64,000 nucleotides of DNA, taken from assembly GCA_041651455.1 (NCBI GenBank), contig JBAZJG010000003.1, positions 18,517 to 82,516 of the forward strand, given 5' to 3'. Made by a program: the position numbers and the translations under genes. Shown here piece by piece: positions 1 to 12,622 of the stretch. The notes below the pieces were generated by a model. It saw only the letters and a list, made by a program, of their open reading frames with translations, was not told where the DNA came from and made no database searches. Position 1 is the stretch's first letter. Every line of letters begins with the position of its first letter. Origin of the DNA: Candidatus Omnitrophota bacterium. GTDB lineage: Bacteria; Omnitrophota; Gorgyraeia; Pluralincolimonadales; Pluralincolimonadaceae.

Positions 1-31
1 TGGATAGGCGGATCCGTAAAATGAGGCGCAG

Positions 32-736
32 ATGAAGAAGAGCCGCTATTTCGAGTACCAGTCGAGGATGAAGAAGGCCTATAAGGAGCTGAGGAAGGAT
101 TACAACGAGGTAAAGCACTCATATTCCGAGATGATAATGCGCCTTGCGCTCATCGCGGAGCTTAAGGACGGCTCTACGGGAACCCACCTGGTCAAGGTCG
201 CCGAATACTGCACCGAGATAGCCCGCGGGCTCGGGCTTCCTAAGAAGGACATAGATTACCTGAGGTACGCAAGCCCCCTGCATGATGTAGGCAAGCTTAT
301 AATACCGGATTCGATACTAAAGAAGAAGGGCGGCCTCACGCCGGAAGAGCGCGAGATCGTAAAGAAACACGCAGAGATAGGCGCGGAGGTGTTTGAAGGA
401 AGCAACCTTAACCTGCTCAAGATCGCTATGATGATAAGCCTGACGCATCATGAGAGATGGGACGGCACGGGATATCCCCAGGGATTGAAAGGGAGCGATA
501 TCCCCATATTCGGAAGGATAGTAGCACTTGCGGACGTATTCGACGCGCTGACATCAAAGAGGCCCTATAAGAGGGCGTTCGGTTTTGAAGAAGCGATGGA
601 TATCATCAAGGCTGAGAGCGGGACGCATTTCGATCCGGCGATAGTCAAGGCGTTCCTTAAAAGGAAGAATGTAATAAAGAAGATATGGAAATCAAAACGG
701 CAGGTAGGATTGTTCATAACGGAGCAGATACCATGA
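32..736 (+). CDS. Stand-alone HD-GYP domain protein (putative c-di-GMP phosphodiesterase)
   Basis: 234 aa with HD motif (PLHDVGK), HHERWDG and GTGYPQGL signatures; stop TGA overlaps the next ATG (ATGA). Confidence 0.8.
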   Translation: MKKSRYFEYQSRMKKAYKELRKDYNEVKHSYSEMIMRLALIAELKDGSTGTHLVKVAEYCTEIARGLGLPKKDIDYLRYASPLHDVGKLIIPDSILKKKGGLTPEEREIVKKHAEIGAEVFEGSNLNLLKIAMMISLTHHERWDGTGYPQGLKGSDIPIFGRIVALADVFDALTSKRPYKRAFGFEEAMDIIKAESGTHFDPAIVKAFLKRKNVIKKIWKSKRQVGLFITEQIP

Positions 737-1593
737 ACCCGAGAATCATAATATCGCTGGTCATAGCTTGGATTGTAGTGAATGCTTGTGTTGGAATAGC
801 CGTAGCCATTGATGCTAAATCAGAATACCTAAGAGGAATAAATCTTGCTTCAGAAGGAAAATACAAGGAAGCAAAGAACGCATTGGAGCAATCGTTATCG
901 GACGAGTCGATAAAACCATACGCTGTATTAGAGATAAAGGCTATTGATGAAGCAATAAACGGAAGTGTCAGGCCAGAGATCGCCGCCAGGGCATTTAAAG
1001 GAAAGGCCTATGCCGTTAATAAAAATTGGAACCAGGCAATCTCTGAATATTATAAAGTCATAGAATTCAGTCCTTCATTTAGATATGCATATGTGAGTAG
1101 AGGGAATGCCTATTTGGAAACAAAGTCATACGGAAAAGCGGTAGAAGATTATTCTGAAGCCATCAAATTGGATCCAAAGGATGCAGATGTCTATAATAAG
1201 AGGGGCGTTGCGTACCAGTGGAAGGGCAATATCGATAAGGCAACAAAGGATTACTCATCGGCAATCGAGCTTGATCCCACGTCTGCAATATATTACTGCA
1301 ACAGGGGTCGTGCATATTATGTAAAAGGTAAACTCGAGGAAGCTCTCGCTGATCTCGATAAGGCAACTAAACTGAAACCTAACTATGTAGATGCATATCT
1401 TGTTAAAGGATGGACCTATGAGGACCTTAAGCAGAATGAGAATGCGATATCTGCTTATAAAAAAGTCATAGAATTAGATGCGTCAGAAAATAAATATGCG
1501 ACAAAGGAAGCCGAGGGGGCAATAAAGGACCTCGAGAGTAGAATAAAAAAAGAGACAGAAAAGAAATCTGATGATAGCAAAAAAAATAAATGA
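733..1593 (+). CDS. TPR-repeat protein with N-terminal membrane anchor
   Basis: Internal ATG at 733 (ORF track opens at 685). Hydrophobic N-terminus, then 6-7 34-aa TPR units (AYxxRGxAY...KAxxDYxxAIxLDP). Confidence 0.75.
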   Translation: MNPRIIISLVIAWIVVNACVGIAVAIDAKSEYLRGINLASEGKYKEAKNALEQSLSDESIKPYAVLEIKAIDEAINGSVRPEIAARAFKGKAYAVNKNWNQAISEYYKVIEFSPSFRYAYVSRGNAYLETKSYGKAVEDYSEAIKLDPKDADVYNKRGVAYQWKGNIDKATKDYSSAIELDPTSAIYYCNRGRAYYVKGKLEEALADLDKATKLKPNYVDAYLVKGWTYEDLKQNENAISAYKKVIELDASENKYATKEAEGAIKDLESRIKKETEKKSDDSKKNK

Positions 1594-2050
1594 GCTTATA
1601 AAGGACATGGATTTCGTGCTGATGGCCACGTGCGACCTCGACGGAAGGCCCAATGTCGCGCCTAAGTTCTTCCTGAAGGCGGAGAGCGGTTACCTATATA
1701 TGGTCGATTTCGTGATAGGCAGGACATTCAGGAACCTCAGCATAAACCCGAAGGCGTCAATATCGGTGGTCGACTATAAGAACCTTACCGGATACCAGGT
1801 AAACGGCGCGGTGGAGATCCTGTCCGAGGGCGGAGAATACGAAAAGGCCGCCAAAGAGTTCCTGGACAAGGAGATCAGCCTTTCGACAAAACGGATCGTC
1901 GAAGGCGTAAAGAAAGGCGAGAGGCATAATAGCTTTGAAGCGGCGTTCCCTAACAAGATAGTCGTATTCAAGGTCAGCATAGACGAGGCGGTCGAGATAG
2001 GCCCCGGCGGAGAACTGAAAAAAGAGGGCTATAAGGGAGACGTGCAATGA
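1571..2050 (+). CDS. Pyridoxamine 5'-phosphate oxidase-like FMN-binding split-barrel protein
   Basis: 159 aa with PPOX-class/general-stress-26-like N-terminus (DFVLMATCDLDGRPNVAPKFF); overlaps its neighbours at both ends. Confidence 0.6.
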   Translation: MIAKKINELIKDMDFVLMATCDLDGRPNVAPKFFLKAESGYLYMVDFVIGRTFRNLSINPKASISVVDYKNLTGYQVNGAVEILSEGGEYEKAAKEFLDKEISLSTKRIVEGVKKGERHNSFEAAFPNKIVVFKVSIDEAVEIGPGGELKKEGYKGDVQ

Positions 2051-3357
2051 AAAGATATCATATGCTTGCGTTTGTAGCGGCGATGCTGTGCGTTTCGATG
2101 ACGGTATCCTCCGCATATGCCGCGATAACATGGGCGGGCAATCTCAACAGCGCGCTGAGAGAGGCGAAGTCAAAGAATAAGCCCGTAATGGCCGATTTCT
2201 ACACGGACTGGTGCGGATGGTGCAAGAAGCTCGACAGGGATACTTATGCTGACCCTGAGGTGGCGAACCTCGCCAAAAGATTCATATGCGTCAAGGTCAA
2301 CGGCGACAAATATCCGGACCTCGTGTCCAAATATGGCGTATCCGGATACCCTACTATAATCTTCCTTGACCCGGCAGGAAACAAGGCAAATGCCATTGTA
2401 GGCTATGTGAATGCGGAAGGAATGCTCTCGAGGATGAACGCGGTCCTTTCGAGCTTGCCTGCGGAAAAACCCGCCAAGAAAGCCGAGGAAAAGAAAGAAG
2501 AGATGTCTGAAATGCCGGAGGATAAGAAGCCTGCCGGAGGCTGGAAGACAAAAGTCAACGACTGGTGGTCCGGAGTTAAAAAGACCGACTCTCCAGGCGA
2601 GCCGGTAACAACAGCTGACGAGACCGCCGGTGCCGGAACAGTTGCCGTCGCAAAAGGGACCATCTATAGCGATGTGCTTGAACTTAACAGCGGCAGGGGG
2701 ATACAGGGGCTCATAGAAAGTGAGGACGACCTGCATTACAACATCAAGCTGCCTCTCGGCAAGACGTCAATAAAGAAGGCCGATGTGAAGGAGGTCAGGA
2801 AGCTGTCTCCGGAGGAGGCCTGCGTAATGATGGGGGATAAGTATTACGAGACGAAGAATTATGATGCCGCGATGGCAGAGTACGTGAAAGCGTTGAGCAT
2901 AAATCCCGATTATAAGCCCGCGAAGGTATCGATGGAATCCGCGAAAAGGAAGAAGATAGAGCTCATAGAGCAGGAGAAGAAGAGGCAGAAACTTGAGCAG
3001 GAATCGGCGGAGAAGGAAGCTGAAGAGGAGCCCGCAGTTGTCGCAGAACAAGCCGAGCAGTTCGCGGCTAAGCGGATCAGCTTCGGTTTCAACGTTATGA
3101 ACAGGGAGATACTCAAGAGAAAATACGATTATAAGGACTTCGGTTTTTCGGTGGATGACGCGCTGGTCGTGAACGGCTTCTACGCGAAAAACCCCTGTTC
3201 CTGCAAGCCTGTCTATCCCGCGCAGGAAGCCGGTTTAAGGCCCGGGGATAAGATAGTATCTATCAATGGCGAGGCGGTAGGCGGCCTTACGGCGGCTGAA
3301 GCGACGAGGCTCATAGGAAGCCACCGGTATACTAAATTTGTAGTGGAACGGCCGTAG
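2047..3357 (+). CDS. Secreted thioredoxin-like (WCGWC) / TPR / C-terminal PDZ domain protein
   Basis: Signal peptide and thioredoxin CxxC (DWCGWCKKLD); central K/E-rich region with a TPR unit; C-terminal PDZ (GLRPGDKIVSINGEAV). ATGA overlap with the upstream gene. Confidence 0.7.
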   Translation: MKRYHMLAFVAAMLCVSMTVSSAYAAITWAGNLNSALREAKSKNKPVMADFYTDWCGWCKKLDRDTYADPEVANLAKRFICVKVNGDKYPDLVSKYGVSGYPTIIFLDPAGNKANAIVGYVNAEGMLSRMNAVLSSLPAEKPAKKAEEKKEEMSEMPEDKKPAGGWKTKVNDWWSGVKKTDSPGEPVTTADETAGAGTVAVAKGTIYSDVLELNSGRGIQGLIESEDDLHYNIKLPLGKTSIKKADVKEVRKLSPEEACVMMGDKYYETKNYDAAMAEYVKALSINPDYKPAKVSMESAKRKKIELIEQEKKRQKLEQESAEKEAEEEPAVVAEQAEQFAAKRISFGFNVMNREILKRKYDYKDFGFSVDDALVVNGFYAKNPCSCKPVYPAQEAGLRPGDKIVSINGEAVGGLTAAEATRLIGSHRYTKFVVERP

Positions 3358-3364
3358 AAGAACC

Positions 3365-3393
3365 TATACACATCAAATAAAGTTTGGTATAAT
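3365..3393 (+). promoter_or_regulatory. Putative extended -10 promoter for tRNA-Ala
   Basis: TGG-TATAAT at 3385-3393, with a weak -35 (TATACA) 17 nt upstream. Confidence 0.35.
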
Positions 3394-3456: not shown

Positions 3457-3532
3457 GGGGCTGTAGCTCAGCTGGGAGAGCGCTTGAATCGCACTCAAGA
3501 GGTCGGGGGTTCGATCCCCCCCAGCTCCACCA
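3457..3532 (+). tRNA. tRNA-Ala (anticodon CGC)
   Basis: Cloverleaf GGGGCTG / GCTC-AGCTGGGA-GAGC / CTTGA-ATCGCAC-TCAAG / GGGGG-TTCGATC-CCCCC / CAGCTCC-ACCA, with an encoded CCA. Confidence 0.9.
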
Positions 3533-5884: not shown

Positions 5885-8800
5885 TTGCATTTTAAGAGCC
5901 TGGAACTGTTCGGATTCAAGTCATTTGCCAACAAAACTGAGCTGAATTTCGAACCCGGTGTAACGGCGATCGTCGGCCCGAACGGCTGCGGTAAATCGAA
6001 CATATCCGACGCCATAAAATGGGTGCTCGGCGAGACATCAGCCAGGGAAGTCCGCGGCAACAAGATGGAAGACGTCATCTTCAGCGGCACGGACGGTAAA
6101 GAGGCTCTCGGGTTCGCAGAAGTATCCCTCACTATAGTAAACCAGCCTAAGATACTCCCCACAGAATACGACGAAGTAACCATCACGAGAAGGGTATTCC
6201 GTTCCGGGGAGAGCGAATATTTCATCAACAAGTCCCCCGTTCGGTTAAAAGATATCAACGAACTATTCATGGGCACCGGCATCGGCACGTCCACCTATTC
6301 ACTTATGGAACAGGGAAGGATAGCCGAATTATTGGACTCGCGCCCCGAAGAGAGGCGCTATGTATTCGAGGAGGCCGCCGGCATCACCAGGTATAAGGCC
6401 AAGAAGAAAGAGGCCTTGAGAAAACTGGAGCAGACAGAGGCGAACCTCCTCAGGGTAAGCGACGTAATAACGGAAGTCAAGCGCCAGATCAATTCGATCG
6501 AGCGGCAGGCAAACAAGGCGAGAAAGTACAAGGAGGACTTCGAGAAGCTTAAAGAGATGGAGGTCGTCTCCGCGGCGAACGAGTTCAGGAAGATAAGGTC
6601 GGAGGAAGGCAGTATATATTCCGACAGGGACGGCCTAAAGGCAAAGGAAGACGAAATCAACGCAGTCATATCGGAGCTTGACTCGAAACTAATGTCTTTG
6701 AGGTCTGACCTCGACAAGGTGGACCACAGGCTGTCGGAAGCAAAGGCCAACGTGGTCAATATCGAGGGCCAGATCGAAAGGAACAGGGACAGGATAACCT
6801 ACAATTCCGAGCGGAGCAACGAGCTCAACGCGAGGATAGCAGCCATCGATAAGGACCTCGTATCCAGCAGGGAGAGATTGTCGAATGTGGAGGCTGAGGT
6901 TGCGAGGCTTAACCTCGAATCAGGCCAGTTCAAGAGCAACGAAGAGAACAAGAAGGCGGAGATAGAACAGAAGACGGCATACCTCGACTCGATAGCCGAG
7001 ACCGTAAGGGTATGCCAGGAGAATATAGAGAAGGCAAAATTATATATAGTGGACATAGCGCAGGGGCAGACGAGGGTACATAACGAGCTTACGAAAATGG
7101 TCGCCCATACGCAGCACCTCAGCGCGCGGCAGAGAAGGATAGAGGTGGAAAAGAGGAAGGTCGAGGAGGAGAGGTCGTCGTTCAACCAGAAACTCGGTGA
7201 CCTTGTAGTATTTGTCGAGAAGATAGGAAAGGATATCGAGGAGCTGAACTGGAAGAAGGCGCAGGCCGAGGGAAGCCTCAGCAGCCTCGACGAAGATATA
7301 GCCAAACTTGAAACGGACCTGCAGGGCCTGAATTCAGAGCTTACAACGGCTCAATCTCGCCTGACATTCCTCGAGGACCTTAAGGCGAAATATGAGGGTT
7401 TCTCGCTTGGAGTAAAGACCGTCCTTAAGGAGATAGAGCGCGGGTCCGGAGTGTCGGAAGGCGTGGTCGGTGTTGTCGCGGACCTCATAGAGCCGTTCCA
7501 GGGTTATGACGGTGTAGTCGAAGCTGCCTTGGGCGATATGGTACAGGCGGTGATCGTGAAGGACAGGGATACGGCGAGGAAACTCATAAGGTTCCTCGAT
7601 GAGGGTTCTCTCGGAAGGGCCACATTCATCCCCCTGGAAGGGCTTAGAAGGCAGGATGCTGCAAGCGATATATTGAATTACCTGAAGGTCAATGAGGCGG
7701 TAAAACCCGCCGTAGAATATCTCCTGAGGAACGCGTGCCTTGCCGAAGACCTCGACTCCGCTATTGCATCCGCGGCGGACCGCCAGGACAGCATGAGGTT
7801 CATAACCAGGAACGGCGAAGTGGTCGAAAGAGGTTACTCCGCGGGCGGAAAGGTGCCTAAGGCCGAAGGGTTCAGCCTTATAGGCAGGGACGCCAAGATA
7901 AAGGAACTCAGGATCAGCATAGAGAACCTTAAGGCAAGGACGGAAGCCGCGGCGGCGGAACTGAATGAAAAGAAGCAGTCAAGGGACCAGCTTGAAGCGG
8001 ACGCAAAGATGACGGCGGAACAGATACATAAGATACAGATAGATAACGCGAACAAGATAAGCGAAAAGTCGAGCATTGAAGAGGCCATAAATAAGCTCGG
8101 TGACGAAGAGTCCCTCCTTAACCTCGAGCTCGGCGAAGTGAAGTCCGAGATAGACACTTATGCCGTCAAGGAAGAGGAGCTCAAGAAAGAGCTCGCGGCA
8201 CTGAATGACGAGGATTCGAAGGTACAGGAGACGATAAAAGGTAACCAGGAAGCGATCGCCGGCAAGCTGAAGGAAAGGGAAGATACGCTTGTTCTGATAA
8301 CGCAGTTGAAGACCGAGCTGGACATGCTCAAGGACAAGGAGACCTCGGTCATAAACGCGCTTACGATGATGTCGCGTTCACTGGAAGACGAGAGGTCCGG
8401 CTATTTTGCGAAAGAGAGGGAGCTGGAAGATTCGAAGGGCAGGATATCCGAGCTCGTGGCGGAATCGGAGGGGCTCTCGAAGAAGAACGAAGAGCTGGTA
8501 AACAGCCGTACGGCTGCCGAGGCGGACTCGCAGAAGATACTCGACGAACGCAGGTCTGCCAGCGAGGCGATATCACATGTCGAAGCCGAAGCCAGGGAGG
8601 CCCAGAAGTCGATCAACGAGCTGAGCGGGAGGATACATACGCTTGAAGTCAAGACTACGGAGTTCAGCTATAAGAGATCGAGCATCAAGGACAGGCTCCA
8701 GCAGGTATATAAAGTGGAGACGGACCTCGAGCAGGTGGCGGTCCCGGAGGACATGAACTGGGACGAAACGAACGAGAAAATGGAAACCCTGCGCGCAAAA

Positions 8801-9435: not shown

Positions 9436-9460
9436 CCCTTGCGAGGGTAAGGGTTATTTG
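9436..9460 (+). terminator. Possible terminator hairpin between the convergent smc and GGDEF genes
   Basis: CCCTT-N8-AAGGG followed by TTATTTGG. Weak. Confidence 0.3.
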
Positions 9461-10623
9461 GATGTGTAGACGCAGACTTTATTTTTACCCGTTCGCTTTG
9501 CTTCGTACAGCGCCATGTCAGCCAGGTAGATCAATTTTTCCTTGTCGAGCGCGTCTTGCGGGTAGGTAGCCAGGCCGGCGCTTATGGTAAGATTCTTGTT
9601 CGGCTGGACGTCCTGTCCCTTAAATTGGAATCCTTCGATCGCCTGCCTCAATATTTCTGCTATCTGGTAAGCCGAATCCTTGCGCATGCCGGGCAATATA
9701 ACGGCAAATTCCTCGCCTCCGTAACGTGCAACTGAGCCCTTCCCGTCACAGGTGGCCTTAAGGATCCTCGCGACATCCCTGAGGAGCTGGTCTCCCATCT
9801 GGTGCCCGAGGGTATCGTTATAGTTCTTGAAATTGTCTATGTCGAACATTACGAGCGAAAGATCCTTCTTGTTCTCATACGCCTTCTTGAGCTCCTCGGT
9901 AAGCGAGTACTGGAAATACCCGTGGTTCCACAGGCGCGTGAGCATGTCGGTATTTGCCTGGTGGACCGTCTGCTCGTAGAGGCGGGAGTTCTCGATAGCG
10001 AGACCCGCATGGTTGGCGAACATCGTCAATGTCCTGATATCGTCCTTCGTGATGGGTTTCTTCGTGAAAATGTTATCGGCAAGTATGACGCCTATTACCT
10101 TGTCCTTGGCCCTCAGCGGCACCGTCACGAAATACTCGGTCCTCAGCGACTGAAGGATAGGGTCGCCTTCGATGTTCTTTCTCGTATGTTCGTTGGTTAT
10201 CTCGAAGCTCATGCCTTCCATGACGGTCATCGCAAGTACGCCTGAATCCTCACGGAGCGGTACCTTTATATTACGGACGATCTTGTCCAGCTCGGAACCG
10301 CCTTTCTTGTAGAAACTGTAGGCGGAAATAAGGTCTTCGAGGTTCATTCGCTCAGACTCGATCCTGTTCCAGATGCGTCCGGCCTCCTCGACGGAATGGG
10401 GGCCGATGCCCATCTTGCCCTCGACGGTATTGTCCTCTTCGTTGACGAGGAAGAGCATGGCCCTGTTGAAACCGAGCCCCTCATGCGAGGTCACTCCCGT
10501 AAGGATGATGAAGAGGATCTCATCCAGGTTAAGCGTGGAACGCATGGCGTTGCCGATCTCGTAGAAAATTGTGAGTTCGGCGCGGATCCTGTCGAGCATC
10601 TCCTGTAATGATCTTTTTTCCAT
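9454..10623 (-). CDS. GAF domain-containing diguanylate cyclase (GGDEF)
   Basis: N-terminal GAF-like region; C-terminal GGDEF with RYGGEEFAVILPG and DxLGH motifs. Confidence 0.85.
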   Translation of the reverse strand: MEKRSLQEMLDRIRAELTIFYEIGNAMRSTLNLDEILFIILTGVTSHEGLGFNRAMLFLVNEEDNTVEGKMGIGPHSVEEAGRIWNRIESERMNLEDLISAYSFYKKGGSELDKIVRNIKVPLREDSGVLAMTVMEGMSFEITNEHTRKNIEGDPILQSLRTEYFVTVPLRAKDKVIGVILADNIFTKKPITKDDIRTLTMFANHAGLAIENSRLYEQTVHQANTDMLTRLWNHGYFQYSLTEELKKAYENKKDLSLVMFDIDNFKNYNDTLGHQMGDQLLRDVARILKATCDGKGSVARYGGEEFAVILPGMRKDSAYQIAEILRQAIEGFQFKGQDVQPNKNLTISAGLATYPQDALDKEKLIYLADMALYEAKRTGKNKVCVYTSK

Positions 10624-10721: not shown

Positions 10722-10870
10722 ATTTGTTCTTCGGGAGGGGTGAAATTCCCCACTGGCAGTGAAATCCTTGCGCAAGCAAGGATCAAGCCTGCGAGCTTCC
10801 CAAAAGGGGGGCAGACCCTGTGAGATCCAGGGGCCAATAGTCAAAGTCTAGATGGGAGAAGACAGAACAC
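10722..10870 (+). promoter_or_regulatory. FMN riboswitch (RFN element)
   Basis: Conserved RFN blocks: GGGGTGAAATTCCCCACTGGC, AGCCTGCGAGC, a GACCC stretch, and AAGTCTAGATGGGAGAAGACA. P1 strands are GTTCTTC and GAAGA(C)AGAAC. It sits directly upstream of ribBA. Confidence 0.85.
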
Positions 10871-10946: not shown

Positions 10947-12146
10947 ATGTTCAATACGATAAAAGAAGCGATAGAGGACATCAAAAGAGGCAGGATGGTG
11001 ATAGTCATTGATGACGAAGGCCGCGAGAATGAAGGCGACCTCCTGATGGCCGCGGAATTCGTGACGCCCGATGCGATAAACTTCATGGCGAAATACGGGC
11101 GCGGGCTGGTTTGCGTCCCGATGGAAGAAAGCCGGTTGCGTGAGCTCGGTATAGAAGTTCTATCCGAGACAGGCGGCGGCAATTTCAATACCGGGTGGAC
11201 AATGTCCATCGACCTCAAGGAAGGCGTAACGACGGGCATTTCGGCGCACGACAGGGCAAGAACGATAAAAGCCATGGTAAACCCGAGGTCGAAACCGGAG
11301 GACTTCAGCAGGCCGGGGCATATATTCCCCCTTAGGGCAAAGGAAGGAGGAGTCTTGGTCAGGACAGGGCATACCGAAGCGGCCGTGGACCTTGCCAAGC
11401 TCGCGAAGTTGAGGCCTGCAGGCGTGATATGCGAGATAATGAACGACGACGGAACGATGGCAAGGACCCCGCAGCTTAAGGAATTTGCGAAGAAGCACAA
11501 ACTAAAGATATGCACGATAGCGGACCTCATAAAGTACAGGATGGCCGCGGAGAAACTGGTCCGGCTTGTCGAGGTGACGACGCTCCCGTCGGAATACGGC
11601 GAGTTCAGGCTAATGCTTTACGAATCGATGATAGACAGGAAGGTGCATGTGGCGCTCGCGATGGGGGAACTGTCCGGGAAGCCGATACTTGTAAGGGTGC
11701 ATTCGGAATGCCTGACGGGCGATGTCTTCGGCTCTTTGAGGTGCGATTGCGGCGGACAGCTCAAGCGCGCCCTGTCGATGATAGGCAAGGAAGGCAGGGG
11801 TGTCCTGCTGTATATGAGGCAGGAAGGGCGCGGGATAGGCCTCGAGAATAAGATCAAGGCCTATGCGCTTCAGGACAAAGGCCTTGATACGGTAGAGGCG
11901 AACAAGGCGCTCGGTTTCGACGCTGACCTGAGGGACTACGGCACCGGCGCGCAGATCCTCGCGGACCTCGGCCTCAAGAACATACGGCTGCTGACGAATA
12001 ATCCGCAAAAGATAGTCGGGCTGGAAGGGTACGGGCTCAAGGTAGTGGAAAGGGTGCCTATAGAGATTCCTTCCAACCCGAAGAACTTCAGGTATTTGAA
12101 GACGAAGAAAGAGAAGATGGGCCACGTGCTCAGGAAGTTAAAATAA
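10947..12146 (+). CDS. ribBA: Bifunctional 3,4-dihydroxy-2-butanone-4-phosphate synthase / GTP cyclohydrolase II
   Basis: N-terminal DHBP synthase motifs ([18 protein letters not shown]) and C-terminal GCHII motifs ([15 protein letters not shown]); SD AAAGGAGAGG upstream. Confidence 0.9.
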
Positions 12147-12157
12147 AGGAGGGGAAG

Positions 12158-12622
12158 ATGGTGAAGACGGTAGAAGGGCAGTTGATTGCGAAGGGAAAGA
12201 AATTCGCTATAGTCATTTCGAGGTTCAACGATTTCATTTCGAAACGGCTCCTCGAGGGCGCGGTGGACACGCTTTTAAGGCATGGCGCCAAGGAGAGCGA
12301 AGTCGAGGCGGTATGGGTCCCGGGCGCGTTCGAGATACCGCTGGCAGCAAATAAGATAGCGAAGTCGAAGAAGTTCGACGCTATCATATGCCTTGGGGCT
12401 GTGATAAAGGGTTCCACGCCGCATTTTGAGTATGTATCCAGCGAAGCCGCGAAAGGCGTGGCGAAGGTATCGATGGACAGCGGCGTACCCGTGATATTCG
12501 GCGTGATAACGGCAGAGAACCTTGAACAGGCGATAGAGCGCGCGGGCACGAAGGACGGCAATAAAGGGCGCGATGCGGCCATGTCTGCTATAGAGATGGC
12601 GAACCTGTTAGAGAGCATCTGA
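12158..12622 (+). CDS. ribH: 6,7-dimethyl-8-ribityllumazine synthase
   Basis: 154 aa with lumazine synthase signatures ([18 protein letters not shown]). Confidence 0.9.

Follow-up and report, generated by a model that had tools for sequence, protein, structure and literature searches.

The four genes considered here lie at positions 32-3357 of a stretch of 64,000 nucleotides (nt) from a Candidatus Omnitrophota bacterium, which was analysed at its full length and is called the window below. They encode, in this order, an HD-GYP phosphodiesterase, an exported TPR protein, a PNPOx-like split-beta-barrel protein, and an exported thioredoxin/TPR/PDZ (Trx/PDZ) protein that is a predicted thiol-disulfide oxidoreductase. 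The explanation that we favour, with a confidence somewhat above even, is that they form the tail of an envelope thiol-redox operon, in which a constant set of genes is accompanied by an active HD-GYP enzyme that would act independently of its neighbours. The locus would then be an evolutionary mosaic rather than the four-protein module proposed in a first-pass annotation of the window.

The neighbourhood was compared among eight lineages with readable junctions, from synteny tables together with a matrix of tblastn matches; metagenome contigs and metagenome-assembled genomes are the basis of every comparison. The window lineage includes a public contig that is 99.55% identical to the window (L001), which was also used for the genes upstream of the window edge. 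Ordered by the identity of their Trx/PDZ protein to that of the window (100% in window/L001), the others are L009 (87%), L010 (83%), L005 (78%), L089/L090 (about 68%), L002-L004 with L011 (55%), L008 (52%), and L007 with a European Nucleotide Archive contig (42%). The cutA1 gene, a TPR gene, and the Trx/PDZ gene are present in all eight lineages, and the split-barrel gene is linked to them in seven, being absent only from L008. In contrast, the slot between cutA1 and the TPR gene holds an intact HD-GYP gene in four lineages (window/L001, L009, L010, and L089/L090), a deletion pseudogene in one (L005), and no HD-GYP gene in three (L002-L004/L011, L008, and L007). The TPR gene itself occurs as two alleles, type B in the window lineage, L009, L010, and the L002-L004/L011 group, and type A in L005, L089/L090, L008, and L007. 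The four genes are therefore not a conserved module, with the HD-GYP gene absent or decayed in half of the lineages, the split-barrel gene missing from L008, and the TPR gene replaced. Unlinking in related genomes, which would speak against a four-gene unit, thus applies to the HD-GYP gene but not to the TPR and Trx/PDZ genes (8/8) or the split-barrel gene (7/8).

The simplest history suggested by these sequences is that one sub-clade acquired the HD-GYP gene by a single insertion next to cutA1, ahead of the TPR gene, and that L005 later lost it. The L005 pseudogene (positions 8415-8740 of that contig) carries a 36-nt deletion at its 5' end and a 364-nt internal deletion that shifts the frame, and the HD..HHE..GYP core is gone; the ATGA overlap between its 3' remnant and the TPR start is still in place. 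The 12 operon-linked HD-GYP sequences group as one clade in a neighbour-joining tree that carries no support values, and this clade is nested in a 91-leaf clade together with sequences linked to STAS genes. Where the gene is present, the ratio of non-synonymous to synonymous substitution rates (dN/dS) is 0.02-0.07, i.e. it is under purifying selection.

The catalytic residues of the HD-GYP protein are not degenerate, as all motif residues are kept and align to those of PmGH from Persephonella marina (PDB 4mcw). The metal-ligand pattern is complete (H52, H84-D85, H113, H139-H140, and D168, together with G147-Y148-P149) and invariant in 23 homologues. The codons of the HD dyad (H84 and D85, invariant in alignment A3) are located at 281-286 (+ strand) and those of the HHERWDGTGYP motif (residues 139-149) at 446-478 (+ strand); within this motif, H139, H140, E141, D144, G145, G147, Y148, and P149 are invariant in alignment A3. 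Residues 24-214 align to residues 167-357 of PmGH (E=1.6e-53), and the HD, HHERWDGTGYP, and DVFDALTS..RPYK motifs are identical in the two proteins. They differ in that the window protein consists of the catalytic domain with a lead-in helix of ~40 aa, whereas PmGH has an N-terminal domain of ~165 aa. The next-best solved relative after PmGH is an enzyme specific for 3'3'-cGAMP (5z7c), and the solved relatives also include enzymes acting on cyclic di-GMP (c-di-GMP). From these sequence relationships, the protein is most likely an active cyclic-dinucleotide phosphodiesterase with c-di-GMP as its probable substrate. A diguanylate cyclase of the GAF-GGDEF type, with a GGEEF site, is encoded in the window as well (9454-10623, - strand), and it is found in the same place in relatives without the HD-GYP insertion; c-di-GMP signalling is therefore plausible in this organism.

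The TPR gene, which encodes at least four TPR units, has a second and separate history. Its GC content at third codon positions (GC3) is 0.37, compared with 0.53-0.70 in its neighbours on L001 and 0.56-0.77 in the well-supported open reading frames (ORFs) of the 64 kb, and it is the lowest among all ORFs called there. Type A alleles (L005, L089/L090, L007, and L008) have a native GC3 of 0.63-0.68 and are 66-82% identical to each other, and the type B alleles of the window, L009, and L010 have a GC3 of 0.32-0.37. The L002 allele is also of type B, with a GC3 of 0.49 and 59% identity to that of the window. The two types are 38-45% identical (41-45% between the window allele and the type A alleles of L005/L089). 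The window and L005 are ~90% identical in DNA except from roughly nt 704-733 to 1500-1570, where the identity drops to ~50%; this places the breakpoints of the replacement at the start codon of the TPR gene itself and just before the downstream overlap, and both the ATGA and the 23-nt overlap were preserved. Base composition and breakpoints together indicate that the native TPR gene of the window sub-clade has been overwritten by a distant, low-GC, compositionally foreign allele. This replacement was later than the HD-GYP insertion, since L089 carries both the HD-GYP gene and a type A allele. The locus thus documents both gene insertion and in-place allele replacement within a tightly overlapped operon of an uncultured phylum.

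All four genes are intact ORFs on the + strand, read directly from the sequence at the positions, and with the overlaps, reported in the first-pass annotation. The HD-GYP gene occupies 32-736 (234 aa; Pfam HD_5, E=6.6e-40, 137.1 bits against a cut-off of 27.2), the type B TPR gene 733-1593 (286 aa; TPR_1, E=4e-40), the split-barrel gene 1571-2050 (159 aa; PNPOx_N, E=1.6e-15, 58 bits against a cut-off of 28.1), and the Trx/PDZ gene 2047-3357 (436 aa; Thioredoxin_7, E=4.8e-18; PDZ_6, E=6e-9); the earlier domain assignments (HD, TPR, PNPOx, thioredoxin, and PDZ) hold in these profile searches. Start codons agree with the N-termini of orthologues (alignments A1, A2, and A3), and those of the HD-GYP, TPR, and Trx/PDZ genes were seen directly in the sequence to be preceded at a distance of 6-9 nt by GAGG, GGAG, and GGGAG motifs, respectively. 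For the TPR gene, the start at 733 is backed by orthologue N-termini and by GGAG 9 nt upstream; an alternative ATG at 685 was rejected, as it lies within the HD-GYP coding region and both the orthologue N-termini and the Shine-Dalgarno position favour 733. All four junctions had been described as overlapping; the junctions number three, and each does overlap, by ATGA at 733-736, by a dual-coding segment of 23 nt at 1571-1593 (+ strand) that combines the TPR stop region with the split-barrel start, and by ATGA at 2047-2050. The identical 23-nt overlap is present in the gene calls of L001, L002/L003, L005, L007, and L089. The overlap contains a run of eight A residues (1579-1586), and the split-barrel gene is read in the +1 frame with respect to the TPR gene.

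Overlaps were counted at 26 of the 48 same-strand junctions that the window has outside the four-gene locus, nine being overlaps of 4 nt; the figure is somewhat inflated because it comes from a crude ORF map with longest-ORF starts. In the gene calls of L001, overlaps occur at 6 of 14 junctions outside the locus. Start/stop overlaps are the default in this genome and carry no special information on the four genes. The fixed stoichiometry or complex that had been read from them is not borne out, given that overlaps are generic and that the HD-GYP and split-barrel proteins look cytoplasmic, with cleavable-looking signal peptides on the TPR and Trx/PDZ proteins.

The gene string extends upstream. 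In the window, the 3' end of cutA1 occupies positions 1-24 (+ strand), with its TGA stop at 22-24 and 7 nt between this stop and the HD-GYP start; the complete gene is called at 7664-7978 of L001 (window -290 to 24; Pfam, E=1e-34). The order on L001 is a gene for an 831-aa exported TPR protein (TPR831), exbB, exbD, a gene for a TonB_C protein, a gene for an 85-aa membrane/zinc-ribbon protein (p85), a DUF2582 gene for a 65-aa winged-helix protein, cutA1, and then the HD-GYP gene, and the seven upstream co-directional genes are separated by gaps of at most 7 nt or overlap. The DUF2582 gene (L001 7459-7656) is the most conserved of the string, at 86-98% identity compared with 42-80% for its neighbours. 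No convincing + strand terminator was found from the 831-aa gene to the Trx/PDZ stop, the sole match being a weak 5-bp stem inside the HD-GYP gene. One intergenic promoter-like site was detected, in the 37-nt gap after uvrA, and the counts of such sites were not above those of shuffled controls. Because the gaps are tiny and a convincing terminator is lacking on this strand, co-transcription is likely. The four ORFs are the last of at least 11 co-directional genes, which are probably transcribed together.

The Trx/PDZ protein consists of a signal peptide, a DsbD-gamma-like thioredoxin domain, a disordered linker, a small beta domain, a TPR hairpin with a long helix, a second linker, and a PDZ domain, as read with the help of a full-length AlphaFold2 model of middling quality (predicted TM-score 0.33) in which the PDZ domain and the linkers have low confidence. 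The WCGWC active site (residues 55-59) is encoded at 2209-2223 (+ strand), and W55, C56, W58, and C59 are invariant in 13 orthologues. The thioredoxin domain matches positions 452-571 of the 574 positions of the DsbD profile (E=8.8e-20), and the first six Foldseek matches are DsbD gamma domains (30-36% identity). The protein as a whole is not a DsbD, scoring 70.8 bits against a cut-off of 330 and having no DsbD_TM match. Nor does it belong to the Trx7/PDZ (seleno)proteins of NCBIfam NF041199, which likewise join Thioredoxin_7 and PDZ domains in one exported protein; its score is 39 bits where 300 are required, the alignment covers no more than positions 2-120 of the 390 in the profile, and the middle beta/TPR/coiled region differs. 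Chaperedoxins of the CnoX/YbbN type fuse a thioredoxin fold to TPRs, and CnoX is cytoplasmic and has no PDZ domain. The window protein likewise joins a thioredoxin fold to TPR helices, but it has a signal peptide, a single TPR hairpin, and a PDZ domain. Distant matches with both thioredoxin and TPR parts are labelled 'thioredoxin-like negative regulator of GroEL' in several sources.

Full-length relatives of this protein formed 15 clusters at 42-99% identity in a search of 5.8 billion proteins. In a scan of GTDB species representatives, full-length orthologues were found in 3 of 80 loci, the others sharing the thioredoxin domain alone, and a search of 1.84 billion proteins with the non-thioredoxin part recovered only two representatives of the full architecture. 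Only one narrow clade, of uncultured Candidatus Omnitrophota, has the full-length protein. Three proteins of 275-316 aa (P0272, P0273, and P0278) carry the beta-domain/TPR/coil/PDZ module behind a hydrophobic N-terminus without a thioredoxin domain. As such proteins exist, the 436-aa protein is a DsbD-gamma-like thioredoxin fused to a pre-existing exported module, and the locus records a clade-restricted fusion of this kind.

The company of CutA1 and a thiol-redox protein has a precedent. The cutA locus of Escherichia coli encodes CutA1 and DsbD (cutA1, dsbD/cutA2, and cutA3; PMC12685090), and the string analysed here similarly places cutA1 co-directionally with a gene for an exported DsbD-gamma-like thioredoxin. 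The two arrangements differ in that no DsbD transmembrane or N-terminal domain is present in the window protein, the operon, or the 64-kb window, in that the thioredoxin is fused to the beta/TPR/PDZ module, and in that three other genes intervene. In two contigs of a more distant Omnitrophota lineage (L095 3584-5043 and L096 2259-3718), the genes for CutA1, CcdA (DsbD_TM), and a TlpA-like thioredoxin adjoin and overlap one another, an order that parallels E. coli cutA-dsbD, and they lie in one co-directional string ~2.5 kb upstream of a gene for a 57%-identical split-barrel homologue.

The earlier description of the TPR protein as membrane-anchored does not agree well with its N-terminus: the hydrophobic segment is short, varies among orthologues, and ends in AxA-like sites, and to judge from the orthologue N-termini a cleaved signal peptide fits it better than an anchor. 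With both the TPR and Trx/PDZ proteins exported, the favoured explanation gives them a role in the periplasm, in thiol-disulfide maintenance or in protein quality control. The TPR protein would serve as an adaptor and Trx/PDZ as an oxidoreductase in the handling of cysteine-containing envelope proteins, with the PDZ and TPR parts binding clients or partners and the WCGWC site exchanging disulfides, in a genomic arrangement comparable to that of cutA-dsbD in E. coli. The split-barrel protein and CutA1 would be cytoplasmic proteins for small ligands or redox cofactors. The dose of the HD-GYP enzyme would be set by read-through expression of the envelope operon and not by physical coupling to its neighbours.

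Several observations weigh against this explanation. A CcdA or DsbD membrane conduit was not found in the operon or the 64-kb window, and the context of the CxxC motif (WCGWC and GYPT) resembles that of protein disulfide isomerase more than that of DsbD gamma. The signal peptides of the TPR and Trx/PDZ proteins were judged by eye, and co-transcription was deduced from spacing only. The HD-GYP gene, where present, shows 97% identity, compared with 83-87% for cutA1, and such strong conservation could reflect a real role that it has acquired in the operon. Finally, gene order is collinear from uvrA through smc to the rib operon in every relative, and the clade is so narrow that the adjacency of the TPR, split-barrel, and Trx/PDZ genes may be due to shared ancestry rather than selection.

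The last of these points leads to the strongest alternative, namely that the genes are functionally unconnected and merely packed together in a compact genome, their adjacency in relatives reflecting recent common ancestry. Nearly all of the window consists of housekeeping genes that lie on one strand and have overlapping junctions, synteny is kept over the uvrA-smc-rib interval as described, and the thioredoxin domain, split-barrel, and HD-GYP genes occur in other contexts outside the clade. However, the allele replacement left the overlaps at both ends of the TPR slot exactly as they were, ATGA at the 5' end and 23 nt at the 3' end. Furthermore, cutA1 joins the TPR gene by an ATGA overlap in L007, and the two are one in-frame ORF in L008. 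In E. coli and in L095/L096, CutA1 is likewise found beside genes for periplasmic thiol-redox proteins. We regard a pure accident of neighbourhood as rather unlikely. The L008 ORF (7468-8595; 375 aa) arises from a cutA1 gene without a stop codon that continues into the TPR gene, and AAGGAG precedes the internal ATG; this fusion and the missing split-barrel gene both rest on a single Logan contig, in which an assembly error is possible.

The wider family of the HD-GYP protein bears on where the inserted gene came from. Homologues of the same length and likewise without a sensor domain form more than 100 clusters at 50-69% identity in Omnitrophota. Relatives that are 63-66% identical sit at another place in the genome, where they directly follow an orthologous STAS gene of 112-113 aa, in three lineages, L091 (7641-9073), L093 (6655-8726), and L177 (4650-5714; complete genome CP070807.1). 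The surroundings include a second STAS gene, a CHASE2-SpoIIE phosphatase gene, and an RsbW-like kinase gene in L091, and a PilZ gene in L093; in a fourth lineage (55% identity), the HD-GYP gene follows two Band_7 genes. A STAS gene was looked for in the 64-kb window and not found. The STAS-HD-GYP pair of other Omnitrophota may be a candidate for partner-switch control of a c-di-GMP phosphodiesterase, and no paper describing such control was found for this phylum. In the SiaABCD system of Pseudomonas aeruginosa, a switch protein controls a c-di-GMP enzyme (PMC8457831). The Omnitrophota family resembles it in being preceded by STAS genes, with SpoIIE- and RsbW-like genes nearby in L091, but Sia controls a cyclase rather than an HD-GYP enzyme, and the window copy has no STAS neighbour. 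The recurrent pair could be a real regulatory unit. A bolder account would have a STAS-governed HD-GYP family rewired into a TonB/CutA/thiol-redox operon tail, so that c-di-GMP breakdown is slaved to envelope expression, and would in addition treat the exported TPR protein as a cassette that can be exchanged and is under pressure to diversify, through encounters with host cells or phages for instance; we consider this combination quite unlikely.

A signalling relay, as suggested in the first-pass annotation, would have the TPR and Trx/PDZ proteins, perhaps with the split-barrel protein as a flavoprotein, pass an envelope redox or proteostasis input to the HD-GYP enzyme and thereby tune c-di-GMP. 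A true four-gene module would link the redox state of the envelope to c-di-GMP signalling by a new route. The enzyme does lack a sensor domain and has intact catalytic residues, in four lineages its gene is closely spaced with the other three and under strong purifying selection, and the STAS context of its relatives suggests that the family relies on a partner protein for control. The comparative evidence says otherwise: the HD-GYP gene is absent from its slot in three of the eight lineages and decayed in a fourth, where the other genes persist, and the supposed TPR partner was swapped for an allele of only 41-45% identity with the HD-GYP gene retained. The TPR and Trx/PDZ proteins are exported and the HD-GYP protein is cytoplasmic, no transmembrane relay is encoded, and the overlaps are uninformative in this genome. 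Outside the clade, none of 77 non-syntenic loci with related thioredoxin domains has a CutA1, split-barrel, or matching TPR neighbour, and an HD-GYP gene lies within 10 kb of the Trx_7 gene in seven of them, roughly as expected by chance for phyla rich in HD-GYP genes. An adjacency of this kind in Abditibacterium was rejected as chance, the HD-GYP domain there being the end of a convergent 991-aa protein. Among the matches listed in a metagenome scan, 80 loci with more distant, generic HD-GYP domains (41-53% identity) have no CutA1 neighbour, no split-barrel neighbour, and one thioredoxin neighbour. A relay of this kind is very unlikely.

The split-barrel protein has no signal peptide, its AlphaFold2 model is of good quality (mean predicted local distance difference test score [pLDDT] 86), and its top Foldseek matches are PNPOx-like proteins. 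It had been labelled as binding flavin mononucleotide (FMN), which the matches do not establish: among PDB sequences it matches HupZ (E=8.5e-10) and HutZ (E=1.7e-6) best, both of which bind haem, and FMN, haem, and F420 binders turn up side by side in the fold search at similar scores. No solved proteins are closer to the 159-aa protein in sequence than HupZ and HutZ, which share its fold, but the identity is ~24% and confined to the first 97 residues of the split barrel, and the family cut-offs are not reached (HutZ, NCBIfam TIGR04110, 25.1 against 225; HugZ, TIGR04109, 16.8 against 240). The family comprises 30 clusters. His119 is nearly invariant and lies within a conserved GExH..FE motif. 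The 57%-identical homologue in L095/L096 ends a string of genes for flavodoxin, CutA1, CcdA, a TlpA-like thioredoxin, NAPRTase, LUD, and the split-barrel protein, and a 51%-identical homologue lies near a Redoxin gene.

These matches raise the alternative of a haem or iron function, in which the HupZ/HutZ-like split barrel and ExbB-ExbD-TonB would serve haem uptake, the thioredoxin would resemble CcmG/ResA, and the TPR proteins would resemble CcmI/CycH, the exported thioredoxin keeping the cysteines of apocytochromes or haem-handling proteins reduced. Besides the HupZ/HutZ matches and His119, the presence of exbB, exbD, and a TonB_C gene in the same string fits this idea, as does a TPR831 score above the gathering threshold of TPR_CcmH_CycH (49 against 42 bits). 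However, the HutZ and HugZ scores are far under their cut-offs, FMN-, F420-, and haem-binding relatives score alike in the fold search, and cross-matches among TPR models are generic. In addition, neither the string nor the scanned ORFs of the window showed a TonB-dependent receptor, a haem transporter, or a Ccm gene, and the split-barrel gene is dispensable in L008. A haem or iron function is accordingly held to be highly improbable. A role in defence was rejected, as PADLOC gave weak generic matches of the HD protein to Cas3 (E=8e-5) and nothing for the other three proteins.

Taken one by one, the components are ordinary members of their families, and the STAS-HD-GYP pair and the cassette-like replacement of the TPR gene are the more interesting leads; a survey of Omnitrophota (PMC10066038) mentions none of these genes. 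The surrounding DNA is core chromosome, nearly all of it on the + strand in the crude ORF map, with rib genes behind an FMN riboswitch and genes for LigA, a XerC/D-like recombinase, PNPase, FtsK, RecA, HtrA, AlaRS, HisD, and TrpE. The riboswitch (10722-10867, 92.6 bits) precedes ribBA-ribH-nusB and is ordinary. No RNA elements or tandem repeats were found inside 32-3357. Downstream, the gene string is bounded by a tRNA-Ala(CGC) gene at 3457-3532 (+ strand; ARAGORN and Rfam), and a consensus scan placed a promoter-like site at 3365-3393. In L005, an extra Methyltransf_21 gene (11501-12457; GC3 0.46) lies between the Trx/PDZ gene and the Memo/AMMECR1 gene, and it was found in this relative only.

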